Source: Escherichia coli
Lineage (GTDB): Bacteria > Pseudomonadota > Gammaproteobacteria > Enterobacterales > Enterobacteriaceae
Strand: one strand, 5' to 3'
NCBI RefSeq assembly: GCF_030013205.1
Contig: NZ_CP122648.1
Length of the DNA: 64,000 bases
Shown in pieces: positions 23,901-62,892 of this stretch (within the stretch, counting starts at the first letter, position 1; each line of letters opens with the position of its first letter). The notes beneath the pieces are model-generated. The model had not been told where the DNA came from. It worked only from the letters and a program-made list of their open reading frames with translations, and did no database searches. Position numbers and translations under genes: made by a program.

Positions 23901-26258
<2,358 letters not shown>

Positions 26259-46101: not shown

Positions 46102-46580
46102 TATCCCGCCCCCGTCATACCCGTGAATCTGGTCGCCATATTGCCGGCCTTACCGATGAGCGACTCCGCCTGTTTACCGATATCGCCATAAAGCGCGGCC
46201 AGTGATTCATCAACGCGGGTGAGCGACAGCGTAAAATCAATTTTTCGGGGTGTGCCATCTGCAAAGAAAATACTCCCTGTTTCACTCACCTTGCTGATGA
46301 CATACATGCCGTAAATCATTCCGGTGCCATCCAGCAACGGCCACGCCCGGCCTTCCTCTGCCATCAGTCTGAGCGTGGTCATCGTCAGCTTGCCGCCGGT
46401 CAGTTCGGGATAAAGCACACCGGCAAGCGTCATGTTTTCCTCGCCAACACCGAGAAACTGGTAGGCATCCCGTTTACCGATACGGGAATTTGACGGCCAG
46501 CGATAATCAGATTCACGCTGCATGGTCTGGTGTGGCAGCGTCTGGCGCATAAAAACAAACATACCTAACGCGAGCATCAT
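46101..46580 (-). CDS. U: tail protein U
   Basis: 159-aa ORF; start overlaps D stop (ATGA-type coupling). Confidence 0.8.
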   Translation of the reverse strand: MMLALGMFVFMRQTLPHQTMQRESDYRWPSNSRIGKRDAYQFLGVGEENMTLAGVLYPELTGGKLTMTTLRLMAEEGRAWPLLDGTGMIYGMYVISKVSETGSIFFADGTPRKIDFTLSLTRVDESLAALYGDIGKQAESLIGKAGNMATRFTGMTGAG

Positions 46581-46594
46581 TTTTCGTCACCTCC

Positions 46595-48142
46595 TTAACC
46601 GTCATGCATCATGCTGGCACGGGCGCGCGCACGTTTATCCCGCTCGTATTTTTCGAGCGCATCCTGTAACTGGCGGTCAAGCTGTGTCCCCGGCGCAGTA
46701 CCACCCGTCAGGCTGATGTGATATTCGTTTTTACTCTGGTCTACATAAGAGCGGCCAGCCGGTGCCGTGACCGGCTGATAAGCCTGATAGCCTGCATAAG
46801 AGCTGGTCGCCGGAATATAACCACCGGTGCCATACGTGGCGGCATGAGTTCTGGCGGCGGTCTGGTCAAGTGTGTCTGACTCTTTGTTGATAACACCGAG
46901 TTTTTCCAGTACCCAGTCAATACCGCTGCGCAGTTTGTTGAACGCATTAAGCGGCAGCATCAACGCGTCAGCCAGTGCCTGCCCGAACATGACGCCCGAA
47001 TCACGGCAACGGTTCAGGGTGTCCTGGGTGGCTTTGACCGGGGCAATCAGGTTTTTAAACCACTGCCACGCGGCCTGTAACTTTTCACCCAGCCAGTCAA
47101 ACAGCGGCTTAAGTGGCGTGAACAGTTCCCCCACCGGCGCAAATGCTGCTTTCAGCCCTTCAACCACACCGCCAAAGAATGCGCTGACAGGCTCCCAGTA
47201 TTTACGGATAAGCAACGCCCCGGCGACAATGGCGGCCACCACGGCCACAACCGGCCAGCTAATCGCCCCGATGGCCGTCATAACAGCACTGCCAACCGTC
47301 GTGAAGATTGCCCCCATTGCGCCTGCTGCCGCAATGATGGCATTGATGCCGGTGATAACCGGCCAGGCTACAAGACCAATTGCACCGATGATGCCAGTAA
47401 GCGCCAGTGCGCCACCGGCAATGATGCCGATAGTTGCCGCCAGTGATTTGTTTTTCTGTATCCAGCCGTCGAGTTTTAACACATACTTTGTGGCCGTCTG
47501 CGTGAGCTTACGCAGTGCGCCTTCCTGCTGGTCAAACAGGTCAGTCCCCACCGCTTCATAAGCGGACTGAAACTCCTTAAAGTCACCGCCGAGGTTGTCC
47601 TGCATGATTTTAACCAGCTCTTCCGTTTTACCGTCTGAGGCTTTCAGCGTGGCGGTCAGCTTATCCAGTTTTCCGCTTGCAGCCGCTGCCAGTAAAACGT
47701 TCGCTGATTTCAGGGCTTCCTCACCAAAAATGGTTTTAAGGTATTCCCCCTTCTGAGACGTTCCCAGCTTGTGTTTATCAAAGCTGACCTGAATCTCTTT
47801 CAGAATGGTGAACAACGGACGCATATTTCCCTTTTTGTCCGAGGTTTTAACGCCAAGCTCTTTGAGTGCTTCCCATGCTTTCCCTGTCGGAGCCTGTAAT
47901 CGGGTGACAACGGCACTACTCCCCGTACCCAGCATGGAGCCGATGCCGCACACCGCAGGCAGTGACAGGTCAGGAAACTGCACCAGAACAACACCGGCAA
48001 CCATCGAGACAAAACCACCGAGCAACATGCGCCCGATAAACAGACGCGGGGTGATGGGTTCACCACCGGCAAGCACCTTGCCGACAACAATCAGCACCCC
48101 AATCATGAAAAGCGACAGGACGCTTTTTTCTTCTGCTGTCAT
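46595..48142 (-). CDS. in-frame fusion: N-terminal holin (Y)-like membrane segment joined to C-terminal tape-measure (T) fragment
   Basis: 515-aa ORF starts 4 bp inside the X stop (Y position) with hydrophobic holin-like helices (SVLSLFMIGVLIVVGKVLAGG…) and ends just before U (T position) with Ala/Gly-rich tape-measure-like sequence; far too short for an intact T. Confidence 0.65.
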   Translation of the reverse strand: MTAEEKSVLSLFMIGVLIVVGKVLAGGEPITPRLFIGRMLLGGFVSMVAGVVLVQFPDLSLPAVCGIGSMLGTGSSAVVTRLQAPTGKAWEALKELGVKTSDKKGNMRPLFTILKEIQVSFDKHKLGTSQKGEYLKTIFGEEALKSANVLLAAAASGKLDKLTATLKASDGKTEELVKIMQDNLGGDFKEFQSAYEAVGTDLFDQQEGALRKLTQTATKYVLKLDGWIQKNKSLAATIGIIAGGALALTGIIGAIGLVAWPVITGINAIIAAAGAMGAIFTTVGSAVMTAIGAISWPVVAVVAAIVAGALLIRKYWEPVSAFFGGVVEGLKAAFAPVGELFTPLKPLFDWLGEKLQAAWQWFKNLIAPVKATQDTLNRCRDSGVMFGQALADALMLPLNAFNKLRSGIDWVLEKLGVINKESDTLDQTAARTHAATYGTGGYIPATSSYAGYQAYQPVTAPAGRSYVDQSKNEYHISLTGGTAPGTQLDRQLQDALEKYERDKRARARASMMHDG

Positions 48143-48145
48143 GCG

Positions 48146-48349
48146 TTACTCCCACAGATTGACAGTTTCAGCCACGGGCGCGGTCTGAACGTCGGGCAGT
48201 TCGACGGCGGTGCCGTGCGGCAGCACCGCGCCCAGTTCAGCCAGTCCCGGATTTGCGGCGAGCACGGCTTCGACCACGCCCTCAGTGCGCCCGTAATACC
48301 GGACACAGATGGCGTCGAGCGTGTCGCCCTGTAGCGCAAAGGTCTTCAT
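48146..48349 (-). CDS. X: tail protein X
   Basis: ORF trimmed to MKTFALQGDTLDAICVRYYGRTEGVVEAVLAANPGLAELGAVLPHGTAVELPDVQ… (67 aa). Confidence 0.85.
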   Translation of the reverse strand: MKTFALQGDTLDAICVRYYGRTEGVVEAVLAANPGLAELGAVLPHGTAVELPDVQTAPVAETVNLWE

Positions 48350-48858
48350 CAGATTTGACTCACGATGCAGCGCGGCTTGTCCTGGATGCGCGCCACCGCC
48401 CAGCGCATATCCCGCCACAGCTCATCAATGGTGCTGTCAATGCTGTCGGCCTTCTTGTCGCCTTTCGCACTGGCATCCACGCCGCGGTAACGCTCATAAA
48501 GCGACGCGGTCGCCATCGCACACACAGCGCGCTCGTAGTAAAAAACTTTGATGCTTTCACCGTCGATGTCGTCCGCCGGAACGTCCGCCAGACGCGTAAA
48601 ACCGGCGGCAATTTTCTGTTCGCGGTACTCGTACAGCTCCGCATTCGTTTCCGCCATGCCTGACTTGATGGCCTCACGCAGGCGGGCGGGGGCGACGGTC
48701 TGCTCAAGGCGCATACGTTCCCGGACACGCTTCGGGTCGATATCGGGAAAAAAGAACGTGTTTTTAATCACCGGCTCGTCGCCTGCCGGTTGCGGGATGA
48801 CCACCGTACCCTCACCGGACACGGGAGCCTCCTTTCGCGGAATAATCAGCGTCATCAT
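48349..48858 (-). CDS. L: capsid completion protein L
   Basis: ORF trimmed to MMTLIIPRKEAP (169 aa). Confidence 0.8.
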   Translation of the reverse strand: MMTLIIPRKEAPVSGEGTVVIPQPAGDEPVIKNTFFFPDIDPKRVRERMRLEQTVAPARLREAIKSGMAETNAELYEYREQKIAAGFTRLADVPADDIDGESIKVFYYERAVCAMATASLYERYRGVDASAKGDKKADSIDSTIDELWRDMRWAVARIQDKPRCIVSQI

Positions 48859-48957
48859 GACTACCTCTGAAAAGTCGGGCGGTGGACGCCGGTGCAGTGT
48901 CAGGTGATTCACCCTCACTGACCGGCGTGCCGCCCTGGCGCGGGGCGCATTCGGTTG

Positions 48958-49701
48958 TTAACTGGCTTTCTTTTTCGGGCGTCCACGTTTTGCCGGTGTC
49001 ACGCTCCGGGTCTTACGCGGGGTACGGGTGGCCGCTTTGGGCTGCGGCTCCGGCTTCGGTTTCAGCTCCCGCTCCAGTCGTTCAATCTCTTTTTTGACGC
49101 CTGCCTGACAGTCGAGCTGTGTCGCACGTTGCAGGTGAGCCAGCGCCCCTGCGGCATCACCAGCGTCACGCAGAAACAGACCGGTGATTTTGTGCAGTTT
49201 TGCGCGCACTTCATCAGGCATGTCAGCCGTGGCGGTCAGTTCGAGGGTGTCCATCAGCAGGCGGGGATCCACAGACTCACCGGCAGCGTGAGCGCGCATG
49301 GCCGCAAGCGCCACCTCCTCGGTGAACATGTACGGCGGGGTGCGGCGGTGTTTACCCGGCATGGTCAGACCGTACTTCAGGGCATAACGGGCAATCTCCA
49401 GCGCACCGGCAATATCGCCGGTATCCAGACGCCACAGCATGACCGTCATCAGAATGTCATCCTGTGCACCTTTGCCCTGCTCCAGCACGCCGTTCACCCA
49501 CGGCAACCAGAACGGCAGCAGTTCGCGTTTTTTCGCGGCCTTCAGCTCTTTTGAATAAATCGCTTTCAGTGTGCGCTGGTCTGCGGCGAGCTTAACCAGC
49601 ATCTGCTCATAGACAGTTGCATGTCGCAGCGGGGCGGCTTCCCGCTGCGCGGTCATCGCTGCCGAGACCCGCATCATGTGGCGCTGTGCGGGACTCGTCA
49701 T
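48958..49701 (-). CDS. M: terminase endonuclease (small) subunit M
   Basis: 247-aa ORF in the M position between L and N. Confidence 0.8.
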   Translation of the reverse strand: MTSPAQRHMMRVSAAMTAQREAAPLRHATVYEQMLVKLAADQRTLKAIYSKELKAAKKRELLPFWLPWVNGVLEQGKGAQDDILMTVMLWRLDTGDIAGALEIARYALKYGLTMPGKHRRTPPYMFTEEVALAAMRAHAAGESVDPRLLMDTLELTATADMPDEVRAKLHKITGLFLRDAGDAAGALAHLQRATQLDCQAGVKKEIERLERELKPKPEPQPKAATRTPRKTRSVTPAKRGRPKKKAS

Positions 49702-49704
49702 CGG

Positions 49705-50778
49705 TTACGCTCCCGGCTCTGCGGTCGCCCTGGCCGGTGTGGAGAAATCACCGACCTTAATTTTTTCCACCAGGCAACCGGCGGCGTAGTCTTCCACCAC
49801 GTAATCAATGTTCATTGACTCGTAGTTCTCCACGCGGTCGAGTTTCGGGTTTTCCTCAATCACGCGGCGATGGCTGTCATCCATGTAGTAGATGGACAGG
49901 TTTTCCAGCTTCGTGATGAGCATCGCATCCGCCGGGAAGTACGGGACGCGTACCGCCGGCAGGTTACCGATGCGTTTCTGGCTGATGATGACGTCAGCGG
50001 CCAGCATTTCGCTGTTGTCCTGCTCTTTGTTAACGATGGGGAAATACTTGTCCGCCAGTAGCTGACGCCCCACAATCACCACAAGGTCAGGGTCTTCCTG
50101 ATACCACGGCTCAATCAGGTTGTTGGTCGCATCCATCACCAGTGCATCAAGGCTGGCATAATCACCGCCCTTACCCACGCGGATAACCTCAGAGGTGGTG
50201 CGGCCTTCCTCGTCAGTGACCTTGCTCATCACACGCGCCGGGGCTTCATTGCGGTATTTCTGCAGCCAGCCAACCGCCACATCCTGCAGCATCGGATTGC
50301 TGCTGCGGTCAGAGGTTTCGGCACGCTTCACGCCGTTAAAACCGGCCATGATGAAATCAAGGGACTGGCGTTTGATAATGGCGTTACGGATACGGAGCTG
50401 GAAATCCTGATAACGCGCCCACAGGTCAAGCGTTTTGTAGCGGATATAAAAATCGAAGTTAATCTGGTCGCATTCGTACTTGTTAGACGCCAGCTTCGAG
50501 AAGTCCTTCGGCTGACGCTCGGTGCCACCGGCGGTGTCGGTGGTGCTGGCGATGGAGCCGGTGACACCGATACCAATTTTTTCCCCTTTCATTTCGCTGA
50601 CCGGCACAATGTTGATGCGGGTCAGAAAATCAGAGGACTCCTGCATGGTGTTCATCAGGGTCTGGGTGACCGACGGTTCAACGGTGAATTTTTTCGACAC
50701 ATCACCGGCGTCGATGCCGTTCAGTTCGGCAACACGGGACAGGTAGGCATTAAATTTAAAGCGGGTTTCCTGGCGCAT
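49705..50778 (-). CDS. N: major capsid protein N
   Basis: 357-aa ORF. Confidence 0.85.
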   Translation of the reverse strand: MRQETRFKFNAYLSRVAELNGIDAGDVSKKFTVEPSVTQTLMNTMQESSDFLTRINIVPVSEMKGEKIGIGVTGSIASTTDTAGGTERQPKDFSKLASNKYECDQINFDFYIRYKTLDLWARYQDFQLRIRNAIIKRQSLDFIMAGFNGVKRAETSDRSSNPMLQDVAVGWLQKYRNEAPARVMSKVTDEEGRTTSEVIRVGKGGDYASLDALVMDATNNLIEPWYQEDPDLVVIVGRQLLADKYFPIVNKEQDNSEMLAADVIISQKRIGNLPAVRVPYFPADAMLITKLENLSIYYMDDSHRRVIEENPKLDRVENYESMNIDYVVEDYAAGCLVEKIKVGDFSTPARATAEPGA

Positions 50779-50836
50779 AGTTTTTCCTGAAATTAAGGGT
50801 TAATCGTGAAGGTTTTTCCGGACTGACTGACGCCGG

Positions 50837-51691
50837 TCAGCAGTTCGTCATCAGGGCGTCACCGCCACCGCCGGTGGCCTTGCTGCGGCGCTGCTGGGTC
50901 AGACTTTCGGTGTGGTCGAGACTGTTTTTCAGGCGGGTGAATGCCTGGCTGGTTTCATCCGCCCTGTCAGTCACCTCCTGCTTAAGTGCGGAAAAGGCGG
51001 TTTCCATCTCAGCGAGGCGCTGCTCAGTGGCGCTCAGCTTTTCCTGCACATGTTCAGCAACAGCGGTCACCGCTTCATGCACATCATTCAGACGGGCGTC
51101 ATCGCTGGCCTGTTTGCGGCCAAAAATGGATTTCACCTTTTCGGTCAGGGCGGTGAACACGGTTTCAGGCAGGTCTTCAAATTCCAGCTCAACAGGCGTT
51201 GCCACTGAAATCAGGTTTTCAGGGCTTAATTTGAAGCGGTTCAGGGGGTTGTGTTTTGCCGTGCGGCAGAATTCCAGGTATTCCGTGCCGAGGCTTGCCG
51301 GGTCATCGGTGACGGCCAGACCCACCAGATAACATTTGCCGGTATTGGCAAAGTTCGGCTGAATTTCCATTGAGGTATAGACCTTCTGCGCGGCCTTGTT
51401 CATCGCGATAAGGTCATCGGTCGGGGTGATTTTCGCAAACAGCGCCCATTTGCCTTTCAGCGCCGAATCGTCATCAATCTTTTCGGCCTTCAGTTCAACC
51501 ACATCGCCATAACGTTTAAAAATACCGTCAGGCAGGATGCCGCGCAGATGTTCCAGGTTAATGCGGCAACCATAGACGCGCGGGTCAAAGGTTTCAGCCA
51601 TTTCCTGAATATCCTGCGCACTGATGACACGCCCGTCACAGGTGTCACCCTCAACGCCGATACGAAAGAATTTTGAGACTTTTTTTGCCAT
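50837..51691 (-). CDS. O: capsid scaffolding protein O
   Basis: ORF trimmed to MAKKVSKFFRIGVEGDTCDGR (284 aa). Confidence 0.8.
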   Translation of the reverse strand: MAKKVSKFFRIGVEGDTCDGRVISAQDIQEMAETFDPRVYGCRINLEHLRGILPDGIFKRYGDVVELKAEKIDDDSALKGKWALFAKITPTDDLIAMNKAAQKVYTSMEIQPNFANTGKCYLVGLAVTDDPASLGTEYLEFCRTAKHNPLNRFKLSPENLISVATPVELEFEDLPETVFTALTEKVKSIFGRKQASDDARLNDVHEAVTAVAEHVQEKLSATEQRLAEMETAFSALKQEVTDRADETSQAFTRLKNSLDHTESLTQQRRSKATGGGGDALMTNC

Positions 51692-51864
51692 TGTCAGGAG
51701 TCCTGAATAGTGATTAGAGGAGTCACATGTCGGCATCAGTTTCCCGACGATGCGCATCCTCCGCCATCAGTCCCGGATGGCTTATCACTGACACAACAGC
51801 ACCTTAGCGAATCGCGGGGCGCGACTCAGTAGGCTTGCCGTGTATTCATCACGGCGAGGTATTC
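51692..51864. promoter_or_regulatory. divergent phage late promoter region (O-operon and P-Q operon; Ogr-dependent)
   Basis: intergenic region between divergent O and P; call is by position in the P2 map, no operator motif confidently identified. Confidence 0.4.
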
Positions 51865-53637
51865 ATGACCATCACCACAGACACCACTCTTTTACACGAC
51901 CCGCGTCGTCAGGCGGCGCTGCTGTACTGGCAGGGGTTTTCCGTGCCGCAGATTGCCGCCATGTTGCAGATGAAACGCCCGACGGTGCAGAGCTGGAAAC
52001 AGCGCGACGGCTGGGACAGCGTTGCCCCCATCAGCCGTGTCGAAATGAGTCTGGAAGCGCGGCTGACCCAGCTCATCATCAAACCGCAGAAAACCGGCGG
52101 TGACTTCAAGGAAATTGACCTGCTCGGACGCCAGATTGAACGGCTGGCACGGGTCAACCGTTACAGTCAGACCGGCAACGAGGCAGACCTTAATCCGAAC
52201 GTCGCTAACCGCAACAAAGGCGGGCGTCGCAAACCGAAAAAGAATTTTTTCAGCGACGAAGCCATCGAAAAGCTGGAGCAGATTTTCTTTGAGCAGTCTT
52301 TCGACTATCAGTTGCACTGGTATCGCGCCGGGCTTGAGCACCGCATCCGCGATATCCTGAAATCCCGCCAGATTGGCGCGACGTTTTATTTTTCCCGCGA
52401 GGCGCTGCTGCGTGCCCTGAAAACCGGTCATAACCAAATTTTTCTGTCGGCCAGTAAAACGCAGGCGTATGTGTTCCGCGAATACATCATCGCCTTTGCC
52501 CGTCTGGTTGACGTTGACCTGACCGGTGACCCGATTGTCCTGGGCAATAACGGCGCAAAACTGATTTTTCTCGGCACCAACTCCAACACCGCGCAGAGCC
52601 ATAACGGCGACCTGTACGTCGACGAGATTTTCTGGATCCCGAATTTTCAGGTACTGCGTAAGGTGGCATCAGGTATGGCCTCACAGAGCCACCTGCGCTC
52701 GACCTATTTCTCCACCCCGTCCACGCTGGCGCACGACGCCTACCCATTCTGGTCGGGTGAACTGTTCAACCGGGGACGCGCCAGCGCCGCTGAACGCGTG
52801 GAAATCGACGTCAGTCATAACGCCCTTGCCGGGGGGCTTCTCTGTGCGGACGGCCAGTGGCGGCAGATTGTCACCATTGAGGACGCCCTGAAAGGTGGCT
52901 GCACGCTGTTCGACATTGAGCAGCTCAAACGTGAAAACAGCGCCGACGATTTTAAAAACCTGTTCATGTGTGAATTTGTTGACGACAAGGCGTCGGTGTT
53001 CCCGTTCGAGGAGCTGCAACGCTGCATGGTCGACACGCTGGAAGAATGGGAAGACTATGCGCCGTTTGCCGCCAATCCGTTCGGCTCCCGCCCGGTATGG
53101 ATTGGTTACGACCCGTCACACCGTGGCGACAGCGCCGGATGCGTGGTGCTGGCACCGCCGGTGGTGGCCGGAGGTAAATTCAGAATACTTGAGCGTCACC
53201 AGTGGAAAGGCATGGACTTTGCCACTCAGGCGGAATCCATCCGCAAACTCACCGAAAAATACAACGTCGAATACATCGGAATTGATGCCACCGGCCTCGG
53301 TGTCGGCGTGTTCCAGCTCGTGCGCTCGTTCTATCCCGCCGCGCGCGATATCCGCTACACGCCGGAAATGAAAACCGCAATGGTGCTCAAGGCAAAAGAC
53401 GTCATCCGCCGTGGCTGTCTGGAATATGACGTCAGCGCCACCGACATCACCAGCTCGTTCATGGCTATCCGCAAGACCATGACCAGCAGCGGACGCAGCG
53501 CCACCTATGAGGCCAGCCGTAGCGAGGAAGCCAGCCACGCCGACCTCGCCTGGGCGACCATGCACGCCCTGTTAAATGAGCCACTCACCGCCGGTATCAG
53601 CACCCCGCTGACATCCACCATTCTGGAGTTTTACTGA
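51865..53637 (+). CDS. P: terminase ATPase (large) subunit P
   Basis: ORF trimmed to MTITTDTTLLHDPRRQAALLYWQGFSV (590 aa). Confidence 0.9.
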   Translation: MTITTDTTLLHDPRRQAALLYWQGFSVPQIAAMLQMKRPTVQSWKQRDGWDSVAPISRVEMSLEARLTQLIIKPQKTGGDFKEIDLLGRQIERLARVNRYSQTGNEADLNPNVANRNKGGRRKPKKNFFSDEAIEKLEQIFFEQSFDYQLHWYRAGLEHRIRDILKSRQIGATFYFSREALLRALKTGHNQIFLSASKTQAYVFREYIIAFARLVDVDLTGDPIVLGNNGAKLIFLGTNSNTAQSHNGDLYVDEIFWIPNFQVLRKVASGMASQSHLRSTYFSTPSTLAHDAYPFWSGELFNRGRASAAERVEIDVSHNALAGGLLCADGQWRQIVTIEDALKGGCTLFDIEQLKRENSADDFKNLFMCEFVDDKASVFPFEELQRCMVDTLEEWEDYAPFAANPFGSRPVWIGYDPSHRGDSAGCVVLAPPVVAGGKFRILERHQWKGMDFATQAESIRKLTEKYNVEYIGIDATGLGVGVFQLVRSFYPAARDIRYTPEMKTAMVLKAKDVIRRGCLEYDVSATDITSSFMAIRKTMTSSGRSATYEASRSEEASHADLAWATMHALLNEPLTAGISTPLTSTILEFY

Positions 53638-54671
53638 TGAGCAAGAAAAAAGGGAAAACACCGCAACCTGCGGCAAAAAAAATGACCGCCAGCGCCCCGA
53701 AAATGGAGGCATTCACCTTTGGTGAGCCGGTGCCGGTACTCGACCGCCGTGACATTCTGGATTACGTCGAGTGCATCAGTAACGGCAGATGGTATGAGCC
53801 ACCAGTCAGCTTTACCGGTCTGGCAAAAAGCCTGCGTGCTGCCGTGCATCACAGCTCACCGATTTACGTCAAACGCAATATTCTGGCCTCGACATTTATC
53901 CCACATCCGTGGCTTTCCCAGCAGGATTTCAGCCGCTTTGTGCTGGATTTTCTGGTGTTCGGTAATGCGTTTCTGGAAAAGCGTTACAGCACCACCGGCA
54001 AGGTCATCAGACTGGAAACCTCACCGGCAAAATATACCCGCCGTGGTGTGGAAGAGGATGTTTACTGGTGGGTGCCGTCCTTCAACGAGCCGACAGCCTT
54101 CGCGCCCGGTTCCGTGTTTCACCTGCTGGAGCCGGATATTAATCAGGAGCTGTACGGCCTGCCGGAATATCTCAGCGCCCTTAACTCTGCCTGGCTGAAT
54201 GAGTCAGCCACGCTGTTCCGCCGCAAGTATTACGAAAACGGCGCTCATGCCGGATACATCATGTACGTCACCGATGCCGTGCAGGATCGCAACGATATCG
54301 AAATGCTTCGCGAAAACATGGTTAAGTCGAAAGGCCGCAACAACTTTAAAAACCTGTTTCTCTATGCCCCGCAGGGGAAAGCTGACGGCATTAAAATTAT
54401 CCCGCTCAGTGAAGTGGCGACGAAGGACGATTTTTTTAATATCAAAAAAGCCAGTGCCGCAGACCTGCTGGACGCGCACCGCATCCCCTTTCAGTTGATG
54501 GGCGGCAAGCCGGAGAACGTCGGGTCGCTGGGTGATATTGAGAAAGTGGCAAAGGTCTTTGTCCGCAATGAGCTTATCCCGTTACAGGACAGGATTCGGG
54601 AAATAAACGGCTGGCTCGGTCAGGAGGTCATCCGCTTTAAAAACTACTCACTGGACACTGACAACGGCTGA
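53637..54671 (+). CDS. Q: portal protein Q
   Basis: 344-aa ORF; start overlaps P stop. Confidence 0.9.
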   Translation: MSKKKGKTPQPAAKKMTASAPKMEAFTFGEPVPVLDRRDILDYVECISNGRWYEPPVSFTGLAKSLRAAVHHSSPIYVKRNILASTFIPHPWLSQQDFSRFVLDFLVFGNAFLEKRYSTTGKVIRLETSPAKYTRRGVEEDVYWWVPSFNEPTAFAPGSVFHLLEPDINQELYGLPEYLSALNSAWLNESATLFRRKYYENGAHAGYIMYVTDAVQDRNDIEMLRENMVKSKGRNNFKNLFLYAPQGKADGIKIIPLSEVATKDDFFNIKKASAADLLDAHRIPFQLMGGKPENVGSLGDIEKVAKVFVRNELIPLQDRIREINGWLGQEVIRFKNYSLDTDNG

Positions 54672-54676
54672 ACATC

Positions 54677-54698
54677 GCCGCCTGCGGGCGGCTTTTTT
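54677..54698 (+). terminator. rho-independent terminator after Q
   Basis: GCCGCC-TGCG-GGCGGC followed by TTTTTT. Confidence 0.6.
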
Positions 54699-54840
54699 AC
54701 ACCCTGTCATCACGCCCTCACACGCTCACCACCGCACAAAACACCCCGCAGACACACCAACGCCTCAACGGGCAGACTAAACGCCGTCACGACGCGCTCA
54801 GACGCTGAAAAAATAAAATCAGCACCACCGCCAGCGCGCA

Positions 54841-54859
54841 GTGCTTTCCCCGCCTCGCC
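54841..54859. other. cos site (19-nt cohesive-end sequence)
   Basis: GTGCTTTCCCCGCCTCGCC is the reverse complement of GGCGAGGCGGGGAAAGCAC, the P2/186 cohesive end as I recall it; lies between Q and the cargo, as in the P2 map. Confidence 0.55.
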
Positions 54860-54987
54860 CGCCCGCTTCATGGGTCGGTTTTAATGCAGGTGCATGAACA
54901 CACTGGAGACGCACCAGTACTGGCGGTGGTCACGTAGATCCGCCCCTTAAAAGCCATGCAGAATAATGCAACTATTGCGGGCGTCGG

Positions 54988-55407
54988 CTAATCATCTTCT
55001 AAAGGTGGAATTTTGATGCCACTAATTAGCAGTACTTTCCGGTATGCCTCAAAAATAATGTTGTGTGTTTTTTGTAAATCATCGAGCATTTTTTGCCGTC
55101 CTGCTGGGGTATCTTTGGCAAAATTATGAGCGCGAAAAAAATCATGTGCCAAGTAGTTTCTGGCTTTAAGAGCATCTGACACATACTCCAGTGTATCAGC
55201 ATCCTCCACCATCCTAGACTTCAGTGCGTAATTCAATTTACCCAGCGTGTATTTATCCATTTCTAAAAACTGTTTTTTCAGCGACTGTATATCTTTCCCC
55301 TGACTCATATCATACTCAGTGATAACATTTATCAACTCAGTCTCCAGTAATTGAGCTGCTTCCGAAGCATAACCAAATTTCCAATAAACCGTATCAAGCG
55401 TCACCAT
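54988..55407 (-). CDS. hypothetical cargo protein with R-x4-H (HEPN-like) motif
   Basis: 139-aa ORF in AT-rich DNA, codirectional with and downstream of the HNH gene; contains ARNYLAHDFF. Confidence 0.6.
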   Translation of the reverse strand: MVTLDTVYWKFGYASEAAQLLETELINVITEYDMSQGKDIQSLKKQFLEMDKYTLGKLNYALKSRMVEDADTLEYVSDALKARNYLAHDFFRAHNFAKDTPAGRQKMLDDLQKTHNIIFEAYRKVLLISGIKIPPLEDD

Positions 55408-55498
55408 ATAATCTATTCCCCATATAACAAATCACACCCAAAATTAAATCATAACACATAATTAAATCTAACGCCTCTCTGCACCAGAAGAAGTCATG

Positions 55499-56830
55499 TT
55501 AACGCTTATCATGGAACTTTTTCCATTTTGTCATCAACTTTCCAGCATCAAGTTCTACATGATGCGGTTGTAGAGTTTTACCCTCAAACATAGTTTTGTG
55601 GATACAATTAATAGAGAAATGAACCGTTAAGTCCTCTGGATTAATCCCCATTAATCCTTTATCAAACATTCGGTGTAAACTTACTTCAAGTAACAGGCCA
55701 TTAGATGTGTTATTATTTGCTGATTCTGTTATTGCTTCAATATGTGCGGCTTCCAATATCCCCTCTGGCAATGGATAGCCAGTAATAGCACATCTGCCAT
55801 TGAAGTTATCCCAAACACGGCGTTTGAAATCAGCTTGATCTCCAGCATGACGGACTTTGTGAGTAACCTCGACTGTTCGTCCTGTAGCACAGGTATCGTT
55901 TGCGGCCTTGAAAGGATTAATTAGACTTTCATTAATGGCTATATCCGTTCCATCCATGATAAGAGATATTTCATTATTGGGTTCGGGTGATGTTAATGGA
56001 CTTATGTACTGATTGCTTAAAAAAGTCATACTAGATTCTTCATCAGTCGCGAGTTTCCACGCTTCTGATTGTGTCATTGTTAGCAATGCCGTTTGATAAA
56101 CTTGCTTATTAAAATAACGTTTATCTTTCTTGTAACTCCCCATATTAATAGTACTAGATTTAATCGGAAGTGTTTTATCACCAATTAGTAGATCACGTAT
56201 TTCTACAGTCTCTTCTAAGGTATCAATAGGAGCTACTATAGGGTTAGTAAACGGGTTATCTACATGATCTACGTGGTTGTGTCGTAAATGCCACTCTATA
56301 GCACTATCTTTTATATGTATCTCGCAGACAGGGCATACAATAAGCCCCATAGATGTTACAGGTAGCTTTTTGCCACCGATTAAGCGTAATGTATTTGCAT
56401 TCTGGTTATGTACTTTCTTTTGGTTCTGTGTCAGTACACTACGCTTAGCCTCTAAACGGGTCGGAATCTTAGCAAGATTAAGCGATTTACGGCTCTCTTG
56501 TCTCTCAAGATCATAGATCCGAATCCCTGCTTCAGTTTTGATTTTTGTCCACATAGAGATAGAACTAAGGAATTTATGTCCATGTACTTTTTCATAATCA
56601 GCATAAGCTTGCAAAGTAGCAGTGGAACTATCTAATCCTTTTTTACGGAGTGCTGTATATTGCTGAAAAAGATTAATAGCATGAGCTGTAATAGAGCGCC
56701 TATTCTCTATAATTTGCGCTTTTTTTGCTGCTTGTTCTGCTTGCAATGCTTTTTGTTCAGGGGTAAGCGACTTCTTTTTGGCTTTCTTGGTTCTTTTCTT
56801 ACTCAAAGTTTTCTTACTGTTATTGTTCAT
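55499..56830 (-). CDS. HNH nuclease-domain cargo protein (Lys-rich N-terminus, C2H2-like zinc finger, C-terminal HNH)
   Basis: 443-aa ORF; N-terminus SKKTLSKKRTKKAKKK; CPVCEIHIKDSAIEWHLRHNH; C-terminus GRCAITGYPLPEGILEAAHIEAI…SNGLLLEVSLHRMFDKGLMGI resembles the HNH endonuclease core; AT-rich. Confidence 0.7.
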   Translation of the reverse strand: MNNNSKKTLSKKRTKKAKKKSLTPEQKALQAEQAAKKAQIIENRRSITAHAINLFQQYTALRKKGLDSSTATLQAYADYEKVHGHKFLSSISMWTKIKTEAGIRIYDLERQESRKSLNLAKIPTRLEAKRSVLTQNQKKVHNQNANTLRLIGGKKLPVTSMGLIVCPVCEIHIKDSAIEWHLRHNHVDHVDNPFTNPIVAPIDTLEETVEIRDLLIGDKTLPIKSSTINMGSYKKDKRYFNKQVYQTALLTMTQSEAWKLATDEESSMTFLSNQYISPLTSPEPNNEISLIMDGTDIAINESLINPFKAANDTCATGRTVEVTHKVRHAGDQADFKRRVWDNFNGRCAITGYPLPEGILEAAHIEAITESANNNTSNGLLLEVSLHRMFDKGLMGINPEDLTVHFSINCIHKTMFEGKTLQPHHVELDAGKLMTKWKKFHDKR

Positions 56831-56939
56831 TTTGCAAGCCTTTAATCTAATTCATGGAAAGGGGCATTCACTTGCCCTGTATCCAGTAAACTGACATAAC
56901 ACGATATAAGCAAGCTCCGTAATTCTTTCATGTTAATCA

Positions 56940-59258
56940 TCAATGGTCCATTGTGAATCCCGGCCACTCATCAGCGACCGGATACGTGAATTTTTTACCG
57001 TCGTAATTTACAGTCGCGCCACGCGCCAGCGCCTCAAGCTCCCATCTCTGAGGCCTGATACCGTTCTGAGCAAGGTCTACGCGGATACGGGTAATTTGCA
57101 TTCGTTCTGACCGGGTCAGTCTGGCCGATGGTGCAATTTCATGCGGTTTTAACGGGCTTCCGTTTCTTTGCTGACGGTTTGGCGTTCTCAGGTCGTATTT
57201 TAATGCGCCCCTGAGCGCCCTCACGACCTCCGGTTCATTCCATTCAATAACACCGTCATCAACCAGATTAAGCACTGCTGCGGCGTGCTCAGAAGGAGTG
57301 GGAGCCGGTAACGAAGTATCACCGCTGGTGAGCTTTCCACAGTTATTGACAGGACTCCGAGGCGCGGCGATGCCGCTTTTTAAAGTCAAAGGCTCAACGA
57401 CCGGAACTTTCGGCACAATGCGCCAGTCCGTCGTTCTGGTGATATGAATATGACGCGCGCCGAGATGCGGCGCGTAAATGCCGACCACTCTCTCGACTTC
57501 TTCCTCGTATTCGTTAACGTCATCCGACGGGCTACGGGCGACCCTGACAGTCTGACAATCGCGCGGGACATTTGCCCCGCCCTGCGCGCTGATATACAGC
57601 GCAAAATCGCCACTGTCTGCGGCGGCGCGTGCAGCCTCCACGCGTTCGTCAAATTCATCAGCAATGCTGACGCCGCGAGGCAATTTACGTAGCTCACGGT
57701 AAGCTCCCATTGTCGGCAGGCCAACCGTTTTAAATTGCGGGATGCGCCACGTTGATGCCCATGCGGTAACAGCCGCCGCAGTATCTTTCAGCGGTCTGCC
57801 GGTATCGTTATCGAGCTGACCATCCAGTGCATAGCCGTCGATATTTTTTGAAATGTATTTCGCGATATATCCCGCAGCACCGCCCCGGTTAAGGTGTTTT
57901 GCCTGAAAACGGTTTCGCGCGGCTCCTCTTTCGTCGCCATCCTCTTTGAGCGCATAGCGACGCATGATTTCGATAATCTGGTTACGCTGGCGTGGATTAC
58001 AAAAAAGCATCATATGCCAGTGCGGCGTTCCGTCGTGGTGTGGCTCGACGACTCGCAAACCGTAGACCTGTAAATCATTATCCTTGAATGCCGTGCGCAT
58101 CAGGCTCCAGATACGGCAGAGATAACGCTGCGCATCCTTTGGATTAAATGCCTCATCATTCCAGCCGTGATTAAGCTGGACGGTTTTATTTTCGCCTTTT
58201 CCGACCTGACGTGTCGGGTGATACTTTGACGGCGCGGTAAGCGTGATAAACATCCCCACATCACCCTCTGAGGCGGCGTAACGCTCAATACCGGCAATGG
58301 TGTTCATCAGCTCCATCCGGCGAATTTCAGGATTAGAAATACTGCCCATCACCTTACTGATAAGGTCGATGCGCTCGCCGGTTTCCCTGTTTTCAAGGTC
58401 ACACGATTTAAGAAATTCCAGATTTGCCTGGCGGCGCGCACGCACATCACGAATGGCGTGTTTACTGGCATAAGGAGAACGGTCTTTATTGACCTCCCCG
58501 ACAGCTATCAGTAACGCTTCATGCCAGCGCATACGCTGGCCTTTAAGCTGATGAGTCCACCACTCATCGTTAAACAGACGGGCAATTGCAGAATATGCCT
58601 GCCTCGTGGTCATCTGTCCTTTACGGTATTTTTTCCAGTAGAGAGGGGAAATATTGAAAGCACGTGCAGCACCAGCAACATGACCATAGAGGTGAGCCTG
58701 CGCCTCATCCGTAAACAGCGATTCTTTTTCGCCATGCGCATCCACCCAGGCATCGCTGAGTTCCTCATACATCATGAAAAGCTGCGATGAGATACGGGCA
58801 GCAAACTTTTTCAGCTCCTTGTCATTCATTCCCGGCAGGCGCGCATAGTGGTCACGCTCTGCCAGAAACAGTAACGACGCGTCGGTGTTCATTTCATGGC
58901 GCTGATTCACACGCTCAATGCGCGGCCATAAACGACGCTGAAAAGTGGATGTGAGGAAATAAAACCCGTGCACCGGGCTTTTATTGCGCCGGATGTAGTC
59001 ATAGCGTGAAGTAAACAGCGAGCGCAAAAAGTAAGGCAGGCGGTTAATCGTGGATAAAACACCTTGCACCTGACGCATCTCGTCACGTGTAAGGGGTCTT
59101 TCGCGCCCGACAGCCTCGCGTGGCGCGTTCCATGCATAAGCACCTGTAAACGCCTTACCGGTGCCTGCGGCAAATGCTGACGGAGGGACAAAACGTCCGG
59201 AGGCTTTAACGGCCATGTGAGCCAAAAGCCTCTGAACAACGCTTGCTGAGTTGCTCAA
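56940..59258 (-). CDS. A: replication initiation endonuclease A (rolling-circle Rep)
   Basis: 772-aa ORF in the P2 A position; true start may be a few codons downstream. Confidence 0.85.
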   Translation of the reverse strand: MSNSASVVQRLLAHMAVKASGRFVPPSAFAAGTGKAFTGAYAWNAPREAVGRERPLTRDEMRQVQGVLSTINRLPYFLRSLFTSRYDYIRRNKSPVHGFYFLTSTFQRRLWPRIERVNQRHEMNTDASLLFLAERDHYARLPGMNDKELKKFAARISSQLFMMYEELSDAWVDAHGEKESLFTDEAQAHLYGHVAGAARAFNISPLYWKKYRKGQMTTRQAYSAIARLFNDEWWTHQLKGQRMRWHEALLIAVGEVNKDRSPYASKHAIRDVRARRQANLEFLKSCDLENRETGERIDLISKVMGSISNPEIRRMELMNTIAGIERYAASEGDVGMFITLTAPSKYHPTRQVGKGENKTVQLNHGWNDEAFNPKDAQRYLCRIWSLMRTAFKDNDLQVYGLRVVEPHHDGTPHWHMMLFCNPRQRNQIIEIMRRYALKEDGDERGAARNRFQAKHLNRGGAAGYIAKYISKNIDGYALDGQLDNDTGRPLKDTAAAVTAWASTWRIPQFKTVGLPTMGAYRELRKLPRGVSIADEFDERVEAARAAADSGDFALYISAQGGANVPRDCQTVRVARSPSDDVNEYEEEVERVVGIYAPHLGARHIHITRTTDWRIVPKVPVVEPLTLKSGIAAPRSPVNNCGKLTSGDTSLPAPTPSEHAAAVLNLVDDGVIEWNEPEVVRALRGALKYDLRTPNRQQRNGSPLKPHEIAPSARLTRSERMQITRIRVDLAQNGIRPQRWELEALARGATVNYDGKKFTYPVADEWPGFTMDH

Positions 59259-59481
59259 CCTGCACGTTTAAATCAGCAAAAGACTTTGCGCTTCCGGTCA
59301 GAATATCGTGATGCATCAGGCCTGAAACGAGCTGGCTTAATTTCGGGTAATAACCAACCACCGCCAGCCATTCCTGACCGGCGTTTTTACCGCTTTCAGC
59401 TCTCTTTTTCTCGTGGAGAATAAACTGAAAGCTGTCACTGGTAACGACATAACGTTCGCCAATTTCAATACGAATACTCAT
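59206..59481 (-). CDS. hypothetical early-region protein (P2 orf83-like position)
   Basis: 91-aa ORF, tightly packed codirectional array between B and A. Confidence 0.45.
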   Translation of the reverse strand: MSIRIEIGERYVVTSDSFQFILHEKKRAESGKNAGQEWLAVVGYYPKLSQLVSGLMHHDILTGSAKSFADLNVQVEQLSKRCSEAFGSHGR

Positions 59482-59702
59482 GCCGTTCTCCGGTAATGTT
59501 TGTTTTTTGCTTCAAAGACTGACTGACAGGAAACACAACGCGTGGCTGACGGGTAAGCCGCACGACGGGCAGCAGGTATTGGCGCGTCACACTCTTCGCA
59601 AACCAGCGCAGAAGCACCGCAATGTTTTACCCTTGCCGCGTTAATCTGGCGCTCCAGTAATTCAGCCTGTTGTTCCTGAATAAAATCTACGTTGTCCGGC
59701 AT
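59478..59702 (-). CDS. TraR/DksA-type C4 zinc-finger protein (P2 orf82-like)
   Basis: 74-aa ORF with CEEC…CVSC zinc finger (CGASALVCEECDAPIPAARRAAYPSATRCVSCQ). Confidence 0.6.
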   Translation of the reverse strand: MPDNVDFIQEQQAELLERQINAARVKHCGASALVCEECDAPIPAARRAAYPSATRCVSCQSVFEAKNKHYRRTA

Positions 59703-60007
59703 TACCAGTTCCTTTTGTCGTTCAGTTTTTTAAATTCATCAGCGCAATAGCTGGCGATTTCTGTCGTTAATTTCGTCAGTTCATCCACGGAGGAAATTTG
59801 CTTGTGAAATACAGCGCGTTTAACAAGTAAATTGACCACATCAGACAGGAGGTTTAATTCACTCTGATAAATCGCGATAACAGATTCAGTTATTTCGCGT
59901 TTTTCTTTATCAAGACCAAGTTGAATAAGAGACAAATCGCCATTTTTCATAACGGCGATTTTTAAGGCATTGTTCAGTAAAACAACTGAACGAGAACAGG
60001 ACATCAA
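59702..60007 (-). CDS. hypothetical early-region protein
   Basis: 101-aa ORF; start/stop overlaps with neighbours. Confidence 0.45.
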
Positions 60008-60261
60008 AGCACCTCCCCGCGAGACAATCCGATGTTGTGAAATTTTTCCGACTCCTGACTGAGCAGCTCGACTATCTCCACGCGGGATAACTCCGCCTTT
60101 GTGATGTGGCGAATCATGGCGTCAAGATGAGAAGAAAAGCGCGTCGCTGCATCGGCCTGTGCTTCGGTTCTGGCCTGTTGCAGCAGTAATGCGTATTTAC
60201 CGCACTGATTTTCAGAAACTGTATGCATGACTTTCTCCAGGCAAAAAGAAGCCCCGCACAA
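60004..60261 (-). CDS. hypothetical early-region protein
   Basis: 85-aa ORF; translational coupling to the next ORF. Confidence 0.45.
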
Positions 60262-60291
60262 TTAAGTGCGTTAAAAACTCTGGTTAATTAC

Positions 60292-60798
60292 TTAATGCAG
60301 ATATTGCTCTGGTTTTACCGACGTCAGAATTGTCGGTGCATACTCAAACAGGCTGAATAATTCACGTAATGCACGGAATAAAGCATCACGCCAGTAACAT
60401 GACTCTTCATTAATTCGCCAGTATGGCTGGTTGAATTCTTTTTCAGTCAATCCGGCATGCATAAATAAAGTGCGACGCTGACTGACTGTTAAAAAACTAA
60501 TATATGCATACTCACTTGCGCCAACCTGACGGCGTTTTGAGAATGCCCCACGCAATTCATCAATTGCACAAACCAGCCGTTCACGTTCGACGTCGTTCAT
60601 TTCTTCAAAACGCATCGTTGCGTGACGCTGTTTTAACTGCGCATGAAAGCAAACCGTTAGCCGTTCGCGCTCCATCATCTGATTATAATAATCACATGTA
60701 TCCTGCCAGCGAGGAACGGCAAGATGCTTACCAATTATCCGGCGCATAGCTGCTGGCTGTTTTTCAACGAGATTGAGCGTCATCACTGTCATTTCCAT
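60292..60798 (-). CDS. B: replication protein B (helicase loader-like)
   Basis: 168-aa ORF in the P2 B position downstream of cox. Confidence 0.7.
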   Translation of the reverse strand: MEMTVMTLNLVEKQPAAMRRIIGKHLAVPRWQDTCDYYNQMMERERLTVCFHAQLKQRHATMRFEEMNDVERERLVCAIDELRGAFSKRRQVGASEYAYISFLTVSQRRTLFMHAGLTEKEFNQPYWRINEESCYWRDALFRALRELFSLFEYAPTILTSVKPEQYLH

Positions 60799-60961
60799 AC
60801 CCTCCGGCTTTTCAGAAAGGTCAGAGCCTTTTTTAACGGACTCTGTTTTTTGGTGCGGATAATGATTCCCTTACGCCCCTTACCGTGGGTGATGGTGAAG
60901 TCAATCGCCCTTGGGCTTTCGTTACGCAGTAACTGAGCAATACAACGCGGTTCACTCATAA

Positions 60962-61234
60962 TCACAACCCCATCCACAAAAGCCATGCATCACGCTGTTC
61001 AACTGGTCGGTTATAAAACGCCTCTCGTACAGCGCGATTAAACTCTGGAATGAAAACCCACTTCTCACCGACACGAGCGTTCGGCTTACTTGGATCACGA
61101 AGCTCAATAACTGGCAATTTATTCTCTTTTACCATCTTGACTACAGCCGTTTCTGGCTTACCAAGTAACTCTGCAAACTTAACCGTATGTACCGCATCAA
61201 TCGGGTACTGAATCACATAGTCATTGACTTCCAT
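60962..61234 (-). CDS. cox: Cox excisionase / early-operon regulator
   Basis: 90-aa ORF ending …WLLWMGL, divergent from the C repressor. Confidence 0.7.
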   Translation of the reverse strand: MEVNDYVIQYPIDAVHTVKFAELLGKPETAVVKMVKENKLPVIELRDPSKPNARVGEKWVFIPEFNRAVREAFYNRPVEQRDAWLLWMGL

Positions 61235-61386
61235 TGATTAGCCCTTTTTGCTTTCGTGTTACCCTTATTAGATCCAGTCCCTTCTAGGTCGCCCCTGTCC
61301 TTTCTAGGGACTGGCTAACACACTCAAAAGGTCACCAATACACAACCTTTTGACGGGAATATAAGTCACCAATAGGTTACTGTCAA
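61235..61386. promoter_or_regulatory. immunity switch region (divergent early promoter and repressor promoter with operators)
   Basis: 152-bp intergenic region between divergent cox and C; inverted repeats (…CCAGTCCCTTCTAGG…CCTTTCTAGGGACTGG…). Confidence 0.5.
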
Positions 61387-61680
61387 ATGCAGACATTCGA
61401 AAAACTGAAAGCGATTAGGAAAGCAGAAGGCTTAACACAGGCGAAATTCAGCGAAATTAGCGGGATAGCTCTAGGAACAGTCAAAAATTACGAAAGTGGG
61501 CATAAAGACCCTGGTCTCAGCATCGTTATGCGAGTCACAAATACGCCTTTATTTAAAAAATATACGCTCTGGTTAATGACTGGTGATACGTCACCACAAG
61601 CTGGTCAGATCGCGCCGGCTCTCGCACACATTGGGCAAAAACCAACAGAATCAGACCACTCCGAAAAACAGACTGGTTAA
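61387..61680 (+). CDS. C: immunity repressor C
   Basis: 97-aa ORF with HTH (EGLTQAKFSEISGIALGTVKNYESG) and …KYTLWLMTGD…GQIAPALAHIGQ resembling P2 C. Confidence 0.8.
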   Translation: MQTFEKLKAIRKAEGLTQAKFSEISGIALGTVKNYESGHKDPGLSIVMRVTNTPLFKKYTLWLMTGDTSPQAGQIAPALAHIGQKPTESDHSEKQTG

Positions 61681-61719
61681 CACTCTATAAACATTATATT
61701 TTCACCATTTGTTACCAAG

Positions 61720-62730
61720 ATGGTGAATACAGCGTCAGAGGGCTTTCTTATGTCAATTAAGAAGCTCGATGATGGACGCTATGAAGTGGACATTAGACCT
61801 CGCGGTCGCGACGGAAAACGCATCCGCAGGAAATTTGAAAGAAAAGCTGAGGCTGTAGCATTTGAGCGATACACAATCGCCTACGCCAGCCAGAAAGAAT
61901 GGGCAGGTCAGCGAGCAGATCGCAGAACTTTGAGTGAGTTGCTGGACATCTGGTGGAAATATCACGGGCAAAACCACGAGCATGGAACAAAAGAGTTTAA
62001 TCATCTGCTCAAAACCATCAGCGGCATAGGTGATATACCAGTGAGCCGGATGAGCAAAAGAGCTTTGATGGATTATCGTTCCATGCGACTACGTGATGGT
62101 ATCAGTGCCGCAACGATAAACCGTGACATGTACCGATTATCCGGCATGTTCACAAAATTAATTCAATTGGATGAATTTTCCGGGCAACACCCAATTCACG
62201 GACTGCCGCCACTGGCGGAGGCCAACCCTGAAATGACGTTCCTGGAAAAAGCAGAAATCGAAAAACTGTTAAATGTTTTGGATGGTGATGACTTACTTGT
62301 CGCACTTTTATGTCTGAGCACTGGAGGAAGATGGACGGAAGTTGCCACGCTAAAACCAGCACAGATTACAAATTGCAGGGTTACCTTCCTGAAAACCAAA
62401 AACGGTAAAAAGCGAACCGTGCCGATTTCTGAGGAACTGGAGAAAAAAGTTAAAGAGGAGGCCAGCGCTAAATTATTCAAAGTTGATTATGAGAAGTTTT
62501 GCGGGATTTTACGCAGAGTGAAGCCAGATATACCACCCAATCAGGCAACCCACATCCTGCGGCATACATTCGCAAGCCATTTCATGATGAATGGGGGCAA
62601 TATAATCGCACTGCAACAGATTCTGGGACATGCGAGCATTCAGCAGACGATGGCCTATGCGCACCTTGCGCCTGACTACCTGCAAAATGCCGTCGCGCTG
62701 AATCCTCTAAAAGGCGGAGTGACGTTATAA
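61720..62730 (+). CDS. int: tyrosine integrase
   Basis: 336-aa ORF; C-terminal catalytic motifs (HILRHTFASHFMMNGG…LGHASIQQTMAYAHL); alternative start at 61750 (MSIKKLDDGRYE). Confidence 0.9.
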   Translation: MVNTASEGFLMSIKKLDDGRYEVDIRPRGRDGKRIRRKFERKAEAVAFERYTIAYASQKEWAGQRADRRTLSELLDIWWKYHGQNHEHGTKEFNHLLKTISGIGDIPVSRMSKRALMDYRSMRLRDGISAATINRDMYRLSGMFTKLIQLDEFSGQHPIHGLPPLAEANPEMTFLEKAEIEKLLNVLDGDDLLVALLCLSTGGRWTEVATLKPAQITNCRVTFLKTKNGKKRTVPISEELEKKVKEEASAKLFKVDYEKFCGILRRVKPDIPPNQATHILRHTFASHFMMNGGNIIALQQILGHASIQQTMAYAHLAPDYLQNAVALNPLKGGVTL

Positions 62731-62845
62731 ATTTCCCTTCTGAGTGTCCACATAGTGTCCACACTCTCAGAACTTTGTAGCCCTTCCAGTCCCTTATAGG
62801 TTTTCTTAAGTTACTGTTTTCTTACGGAAACTGATGTAAGTGATT

Positions 62846-62892
62846 GATAAAAAAAACCCCCACATCATGTGGGGGAAGACAGGGATGGTGTC
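62846..62892. repeat. prophage att site, cpxP-side copy of 47-bp direct repeat (also the cpxP terminator)
   Basis: identical to 44480..44526; on the minus strand reads as GC hairpin CCCCCACATGATGTGGGGG followed by TTTTTTTT, 24 bp after cpxP stop. Confidence 0.85.

Follow-up and report, generated by a model that had tools for sequence, protein, structure and literature searches.

The window analyzed here, a stretch of 64,000 nucleotides (nt) from Escherichia coli (contig NZ_CP122648.1), carries a compact run of small, overlapping open reading frames (ORFs) next to genes named after cox, B, and A of bacteriophage P2, and one of these ORFs encodes a zinc finger of the TraR/DksA type. The locus thus raises the question of what this operon is, what its small proteins may do, and whether they could act on the host from within the resident prophage. 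The region from 56940 to 61386 on the minus strand is almost certainly the canonical early operon (Pe operon) of a prophage that belongs to the P2 family (genus Peduovirus) and has the immunity of phage WΦ. It is a textbook phage operon, found in nearly one third of complete E. coli genomes (1675 out of 5426), and as such an already known feature. Comparison of the ORF map with the records of WΦ, phage 899, and P2 gave the gene order cox-orf78-B-orf80-orf81-orf82-orf83-A on a single strand, divergent from C and int. The genes, with lengths in amino acids (aa), are as follows.

60962 to 61234, minus strand: cox, 90 aa, WΦ-type Cox excisionase and Pc repressor, the first gene of the operon (Pfam Phage_Cox, 9.4e-24)
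60789 to 60959, minus strand: orf78, 56 aa, between cox and B
60292 to 60792, minus strand: B, 166 aa, P2 replication protein B (the longest ORF is 168 aa, 60292 to 60798)
60004 to 60228, minus strand: orf80, 74 aa from its ATG, DUF2732, with the Shine-Dalgarno sequence GGAGAAAG
59702 to 60004, minus strand: orf81, 100 aa from its ATG, DUF5405
59478 to 59702, minus strand: orf82, 74 aa, TraR-family C4 zinc-finger protein
59206 to 59481, minus strand: orf83, 91 aa, DUF5405, overlapping the start of A by 11 nt
56940 to 59216, minus strand: A, 758 aa from the annotated ATG, replication initiator nickase, the last large gene of the operon (the longest ORF is 772 aa)

The operon is nearly identical to those of known phages. 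In a megablast search of positions 59000 to 61700 against phage genomes, the entire 2.7 kb region aligned at 99.6% DNA identity with both Escherichia phage 899 and Yersinia phage GMG73; identity was 98.5% for WΦ and about 96–98% for many P2-like phages. At the protein level, identity to the P2 counterpart is 98.2% for Orf78 (which is also 98% identical to WΦ Orf78), 99.4% for B, 98.6% for Orf80, 98% for Orf81, 100% for Orf82, and 98.9% for Orf83. The immunity module is of the WΦ type, as Cox matches its WΦ counterpart at 100% identity but that of P2 at only 40%. The gene names cox, B, A, and P2 orf80–83, as given in a first-pass annotation of this DNA, are correct according to both protein identity and gene order. 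The length and position of A match those of gene A in the phage 899, WΦ, and P2 records, and gpB is described in the annotation of the P2 and WΦ records as needed for lagging-strand synthesis. In the complete E. coli genomes that carry the operon, the RefSeq labels of its genes are Cox family, DUF2732, DUF5405 (for two genes), and TraR/DksA zinc finger.

Recognizable Shine-Dalgarno sequences precede all gene starts in the operon, and the stop and start codons of most adjacent genes overlap.

orf78/B: ATGA, 4 nt overlap
orf80/orf81: TGATG, 1 nt overlap
orf81/orf82: TAATG, 1 nt overlap
orf82/orf83: ATGA, 4 nt overlap
orf83/A: 11 nt overlap

The first-pass annotation had described start/stop overlaps throughout; this is accurate for most junctions, at 1–11 nt, but B and orf80 lie 63 nt apart with no overlap. 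The minus-strand ORFs that it claimed are all present, namely 91 aa (59206–59481), 74 aa (59478–59702), 101 aa (59702–60007), and 85 aa (60004–60261), together with B and cox. However, the 85- and 101-aa lengths belong to TTG-extended frames, whereas the P2 and WΦ homologues and the PHROG profiles start at the ATG codons at 60228 and 60004, which gives proteins of 74 and 100 aa. Likewise, all four of the small ORFs that it placed between cox and A exist, but it overlooked a fifth, orf78 (56 aa). For the latter, phrog_273 covers residues 10–65 of a longer, 65-aa ORF, which favors the 56-aa start.

The ratio of nonsynonymous to synonymous substitutions (dN/dS; Nei-Gojobori method) in comparisons with seven P2-like phages is below 1 in all six genes, mostly 0–0.3 with a maximum of 0.82, although substitutions are few; for orf78 it is 0–0.14. 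Because dN/dS is below 1 and Shine-Dalgarno sequences stand at the starts, the ORFs of the early operon are, to judge from their sequences, real and conserved genes. The reservation that they might lack conservation is further contradicted by the alignment to P2 orf80–83 that had been proposed as a check, which gave 98–100% protein identity. The related reservation, that they might be identical to characterized P2 ORFs with no regulatory role, is right about the identity but not about the role, as the characterized Orf82 does have regulatory activity (see below). An Rfam scan of the operon matched no RNA family.

Expression of the operon appears to be controlled by the following elements.

61358 to 61386, minus strand: early promoter Pe, TTGACA-17 nt-TATATT, a near-consensus sigma-70 promoter with 11 of 12 consensus matches
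61387 to 61680, plus strand: C, immunity repressor of the WΦ type, 97 aa (Pfam HTH_3, phrog_147; annotated as C in WΦ)
61331 to 61340 and 61365 to 61374, no strand assigned: candidate C operator half-sites, direct repeats with the exact sequence GTCACCAATA, 34 nt apart centre to centre
60255 to 60270, minus strand: hairpin CGCAC-ttaatt-GTGCG followed by GGGCTTCTTTTT, within the 63-nt gap between B and orf80, a putative weak terminator inside the operon

Pe overlaps or abuts the start of gene C, as does the Pe annotated in the P2 record, and the integrase gene lies beside C on the same strand, opposite to the early operon. In WΦ, the operator half-sites of C are 34 nt apart centre to centre, and C lowers Pe activity to 1–9% of the derepressed level in reporter assays (PMC1904263). 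The spacing and position of the two GTCACCAATA decamers suggest that they are the O1 and O2 operators. In a lysogen, C, the product of the divergent gene, would bind the two half-sites straddling Pe and nearly silence the operon. Without C, as upon infection of a naive cell or derepression, a single transcript from Pe would supply Cox, B, and A together with five small proteins, with Cox acting in the switch and in excision and B and A acting in rolling-circle replication. Four of the small genes are tied to a neighbor by stop/start overlaps of 1–4 nt, which would permit translational coupling and probably do couple translation. The hairpin after B has a GC-rich stem of 5 bp and a T-run, and the P2 record is annotated with a “putative rho-independent terminator” in the corresponding position.

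The 74-aa product of orf82 is the best understood of the small proteins. It matches Pfam zf-dskA_traR (PF01258; 3e-11, 43.6 bits against a cut-off of 24.9), the NCBIfam TraR family TIGR02419 (78.3 bits against a cut-off of 59.7), and TraR in the PDB (5w1s_M; 8.9e-10). Orf82 aligns end to end with TraR and has a TraR-like size, in which a single N-terminal helix replaces the coiled coil of DksA and a C-terminal helix is added, and a TraR-like three-dimensional structure has been predicted for P2 Orf82 (PMC9239242). The zinc finger has the form CxxC-17-CxxC (C35, C38, C56, and C59). The N-terminus, MPDNVDFI, contains D3 and D6 of the DxxDxA motif at the acidic tip, both of which are necessary for function (PMC9239242), while position 8 is Ile and not Ala. 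R46 and R47 align with R48 and R49 of TraR, which are located in the globular domain and contact the rim helices and beta-prime Si3 (PMC9239242).

A protein with the same sequence as the window protein has been studied biochemically, as Gopalkrishnan et al. (2022, mBio; PMC9239242) purified Orf82 of P2. It matches TraR in competition with DksA for E. coli RNA polymerase (RNAP), which is half-maximal at 0.65–1 μM, and it inhibits the rRNA promoter rrnB P1 without guanosine tetraphosphate (ppGpp) at a half-maximal inhibitory concentration (IC50) of 250 nM, the corresponding value for both TraR and lambda Orf73 being about 50 nM. [quoted passage not shown] Growth arrest upon overexpression of Orf82 is attributed to Liu, Saha and Haggard-Ljungquist (1993), as cited in the same study (PMC9239242). 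Orf82 would thus insert into the secondary channel of RNAP independently of ppGpp, lowering transcription from rRNA promoters and raising it from some amino-acid promoters, a shift proposed to free resources of the host for phage development. It likely acts in this way during the lytic growth of P2 and WΦ. The first-pass annotation had proposed that the 74-aa ORF is a TraR/DksA-type binder of the secondary channel; given its 100% identity to P2 Orf82 and the published RNAP competition (PMC9239242), this proposal is borne out, and the mechanistic idea behind it is supported but had already been tested and published in 2022.

The prophage that contains the operon spans 44480–62892 (18.4 kb) between fieF and cpxP. 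An exact 47-bp direct repeat, GATAAAAAAAACCCCCACATCATGTGGGGGAAGACAGGGATGGTGTC, flanks it at 44480–44526 and 62846–62892 and contains a terminator-like hairpin. Since the repeat corresponds to positions 16848–16894 of phage 899, it is the core of the attachment (att) site. Compared to phage 899 (33.8 kb), approximately 14,955 bp are missing; the deletion runs from within the holin gene into the tape-measure gene T and takes with it the genes for lysis, baseplate, tail fibre, sheath, and tube. The sequences flanking the deletion junction (47926–47941) share about 16 bp, and the junction yields an in-frame 515-aa holin::T fusion ORF at 46595–48142 on the minus strand. The same junction occurs in only 6 out of 5426 complete E. 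coli genomes, all of them porcine enterotoxigenic E. coli. Judged by its gene content, the prophage is defective, in that it could neither lyse the cell nor build tails even if it were derepressed. Its int, cox, B, and A genes look intact, and it should also retain the origin, which in P2 is located within gene A.

Nothing in the analysis contradicts the identification of the operon, but several caveats apply. The fold energy of the hairpin after B does not differ from that of shuffled sequence (z = -1.23), which bears on the idea that expression of orf80-A is attenuated relative to cox-B. The operon cannot result in phage production in this strain because about 15 kb with the lysis and tail genes is deleted. 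Orf82 lacks Ala8 and inhibits rrnB P1 about five times more weakly than TraR in vitro (PMC9239242), a lower potency for which the authors suggest the missing A8 as a reason (PMC9239242). Moreover, an effect on phage yield (burst size) has been demonstrated only for lambda Orf73 (PMC9239242).

Orf78, Orf80, Orf81, and Orf83 are conserved proteins subject to purifying selection, and no literature was found on the DUF families to which three of them belong. Orf80 matches Pfam DUF2732 (PF10809) with 39.5 bits (cut-off 25) and forms only 28 representative clusters in a library at 50% identity. DUF5405 (PF17399; cut-off 21.6) is matched both by Orf81 (119.4 bits, model positions 1–88 of 88) and by Orf83 (50.8 bits, positions 1–87 of 88). 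NCBIfam had no match for Orf80, Orf81, or Orf83, a PDB sequence search with the same three proteins gave nothing meaningful (the best hits, at E ~0.01, were unrelated enzymes), and the full-text literature on orf78, orf80, orf81, orf83, DUF5405, and DUF2732 yielded nothing relevant beyond table entries reading “unknown”.

The two DUF5405 proteins resemble each other little. BLASTP between Orf81 and Orf83 found nothing and hhalign gave a probability of 2%, while a hidden Markov model (HMM) of the Orf83 family aligned to Orf81 solely over its two C-terminal helices (9.7 bits, with E = 4e-5 for a single target). Their shared Pfam membership makes distant paralogy plausible. Two DUF5405 genes also occur in tandem in Yersinia phage vB_YenM_56.17. 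The AlphaFold2 model of Orf83, with a predicted local distance difference test score (pLDDT) of 81.8, has four beta strands and two helices, and a Foldseek search of this model against BFVD returned only other uncharacterized small phage proteins, including those of virulent phages. The model of Orf81 is of low confidence (pLDDT 61) because of its shallow alignment, in which all homologues are at least 84% identical, and it was left out of the fold search.

The distributions of Orf81 and Orf83 also differ. Orf81 is restricted to Peduovirus phages at an identity of at least 80%, and the GC content of its gene is 0.37, against 0.45–0.53 in the neighboring genes. The Orf83 family is found across the Enterobacteriaceae at 50–98% identity. 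In the 186-like phage SEN1, a homologue (50% identical) immediately follows the TraR gene, and others come directly after abc2 (anti-RecBCD) in the PL operon of Sf6 (gene 24) and HK446. The family extends as far as Bacillus phage BigBertha, which has a member in its early region. The possibility that Orf83 is the anti-RecBCD accessory protein Abc1 of P22 was rejected, as the Orf83-family HMM matched nothing in the PL region of P22. Within orf81 there is a perfect 11-bp inverted repeat (59934–59961, minus strand; AAATCGCCGTT-ATGAAA-AATGGCGATTT, with a 6-nt loop) that is exact in P2, WΦ, and phage 899, weakened in R18C, weakened or broken in L-413C, and broken in T22. Because it is intact in the closest relatives only, it was treated as probably due to chance.

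Public labels of these small genes are inconsistent and some are clearly wrong. The product of orf78 is called “tail fiber protein” in the phage 899 record, and its length is 56 or 65 aa depending on the record. Similarly, “minor tail protein” appears among the features under the region 59206–60986 in the rows for NC_070903 and NC_070908. In the P2-like Yersinia phage vB_YpM_115, an additional 81-aa ORF (1250–1495) lies between orf80 and orf81, and orf81 has diverged to approximately 80% identity; this suggests that the orf80/orf81 junction tolerates the insertion of a gene.

Other readings of the operon concern when it is expressed and whether Orf82 acts alone. The first-pass annotation held that the zinc-finger protein could modulate host transcription in the lysogen or early in induction. 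On the first of these views, the resident prophage would make the products of the operon, Orf82 especially. The residual Pe activity of 1–9% left by WΦ C (PMC1904263) would allow some expression, and as the prophage is defective, such leakiness would not be lethal via lysis. On the other hand, Pe, both operator half-sites, and gene C are all intact, sustained expression should be counter-selected given the growth stop reported upon Orf82 overexpression, and half-inhibition of rrnB P1 takes approximately 250 nM Orf82 in vitro. Expression of the operon in the lysogen is unlikely because Pe and both WΦ-type half-sites are intact, and an effect of Orf82 on host transcription at that stage is highly improbable. 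A separate idea is that Orf81 or Orf83, the flanking and translationally coupled DUF5405 proteins, would bind Orf82 and strengthen, tune, or redirect its effect on RNAP, forming a two-component host shutoff system. A precedent comes from the July 2026 preprint of Beggs and Bassler, in which TraR_VP882 is found in a complex with QisA, whose gene lies immediately upstream; together they arrest growth far more strongly than TraR does by itself, and the complex is inactivated by a third protein of the phage (10.64898/2026.07.27.740977). In the VP882 record, qisA and traR overlap by 4 nt, similar to orf82, which overlaps orf81 by 1 nt and orf83 by 4 nt, and the order of TraR followed by DUF5405 is retained in SEN1. 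The roughly five-fold lower potency of Orf82 alone on rrnB P1, compared to TraR, would also leave room for a helper. However, no similarity between QisA (199 aa) and the small P2 proteins was detected, with BLASTP and phmmer comparisons to Orf78, B, and Orf80–83 giving nothing below E = 0.19. The Orf83-family genes of Sf6, HK446, and phiEt88 have no adjacent annotated TraR gene, vB_YenM_56.17 has its tandem DUF5405 pair with no Pfam-detectable TraR, and Orf82 alone matches TraR in RNAP binding and complements a dksA-null strain (PMC9239242). Because no P2 small ORF resembles QisA, the arguments for a partner are gene adjacency and the analogy to a non-homologous pair, and we consider a partner unlikely. 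If it did exist, this would be the first function for DUF5405, the fold of which occurs in small proteins of many unrelated phages.

The remaining readings concern the small proteins other than Orf82, and that Orf82 itself is the TraR-type regulator of a Pe operon expressed when C is absent remains the preferred interpretation alongside them. Orf78, Orf80, Orf81, and/or Orf83 may be host-takeover or anti-defence factors that act independently of Orf82, which is possible but doubtful. These small early proteins are conserved within the phage family and subject to purifying selection; genes of the Orf83 family occupy accessory early regions of unrelated phages (after abc2 in Sf6 and HK446, and in BigBertha); the Orf83 fold recurs in many small phage proteins, virulent phages included; and the low GC content (0.37) and narrow distribution of orf81 are expected of a recently acquired accessory gene. 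The case is one of genomic context, however, and neither Pfam, NCBIfam, and PADLOC nor the literature provided a function. The anti-defence role suggested in the first-pass annotation accordingly found no backing: fold matches were uninformative, and none of the seven early-operon proteins matched PADLOC-DB, although its models cover defence and not anti-defence proteins, so that this says little. Orf81 and Orf83 could instead be accessory replication proteins working with gpA, in line with the label “replication initiation protein” carried by phrog_154 and phrog_265 in PHROGs and by several GenBank records. The 11-nt overlap of orf83 with the start of A and the occurrence of a DUF2732 and DUF5405 module upstream of A in three Peduoviridae genera are consistent with this. 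However, the label has no traceable experimental source, and the P2 and WΦ GenBank records from the sequencing groups give orf81 and orf83 as function unknown. To our knowledge, only A and B are genetically defined as replication genes of P2. The distribution of Orf83 also argues against the label, as its homologues in Sf6, HK446, and BigBertha accompany other replication systems with no gpA nearby, and a fold match in BFVD to a protein of phiKT is in line with this. A role in replication is thus quite improbable.

Elsewhere in the prophage, the region between A and the portal gene Q (54894–57018) shows no similarity to phage 899. One ORF in this cargo (55499–56830, minus strand) codes for a protein of 443 aa that carries an HNH_2 nuclease domain at its C-terminus (Pfam, 8e-11; PADLOC “HNH”, 3e-11), and another (54988–55407, minus strand) encodes a 139-aa protein with no family match. 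At this position, P2 carries tin and old, two lysogenic-conversion genes whose products block other phages, and the cargo is therefore plausibly a candidate for defence. Outside the prophage, matches at the Rfam gathering score were found for the L31 ribosomal protein leader, a ClpQY promoter element, and the small RNA ES036 (CssrF), located at 23864–23916, 28528–28585, and 42237–42278, which are ordinary features of the E. coli chromosome.

Among known systems, the QisA-TraR pair of VP882 shares with this operon a phage TraR homologue, a repressor-controlled early operon, and an overlapping gene immediately upstream, and both P2 Orf82 and VP882 Orf61 were characterized in the 2022 study (PMC9239242). 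It differs in that QisA (199 aa) is unlike Orf80, Orf81, and Orf83. TraR of the F plasmid and lambda Orf73 (PDB 5W1S and 6N57) are closer to Orf82, with 73 aa compared to 74, and share the CxxC-17-CxxC finger, D3 and D6, the paired arginines, and the C-terminal helix. P2 Orf82 takes the RNAP site that DksA also binds, free of ppGpp, and inhibits rrnB P1 as they do (PMC9239242). Relative to the 73-aa TraR, Orf82 shares 29 identical residues in a global alignment, has Ile in place of Ala at position 8, and has an IC50 about five times higher.

The operon as a whole is closest to those of the P2-like phages. P2 itself (NC_001895/AF063097) has the same gene order, the same overlaps, and a putative terminator site after B, and Orf78, B, and Orf80–83 are 98–100% identical; however, its C repressor belongs to another immunity type and its Cox is only 40% identical. 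Phage 899 (PV533660) is 99.6% identical in DNA over cox-A, C, and int, whereas the window prophage lacks about 15 kb of it (lysis, baseplate, tail fibre, sheath, and tube genes) and has other cargo between A and Q. WΦ (AY135739) is 98.5% identical in DNA over the same genes, its Cox is 100% identical, and its published operator half-site spacing is the 34 nt observed here.

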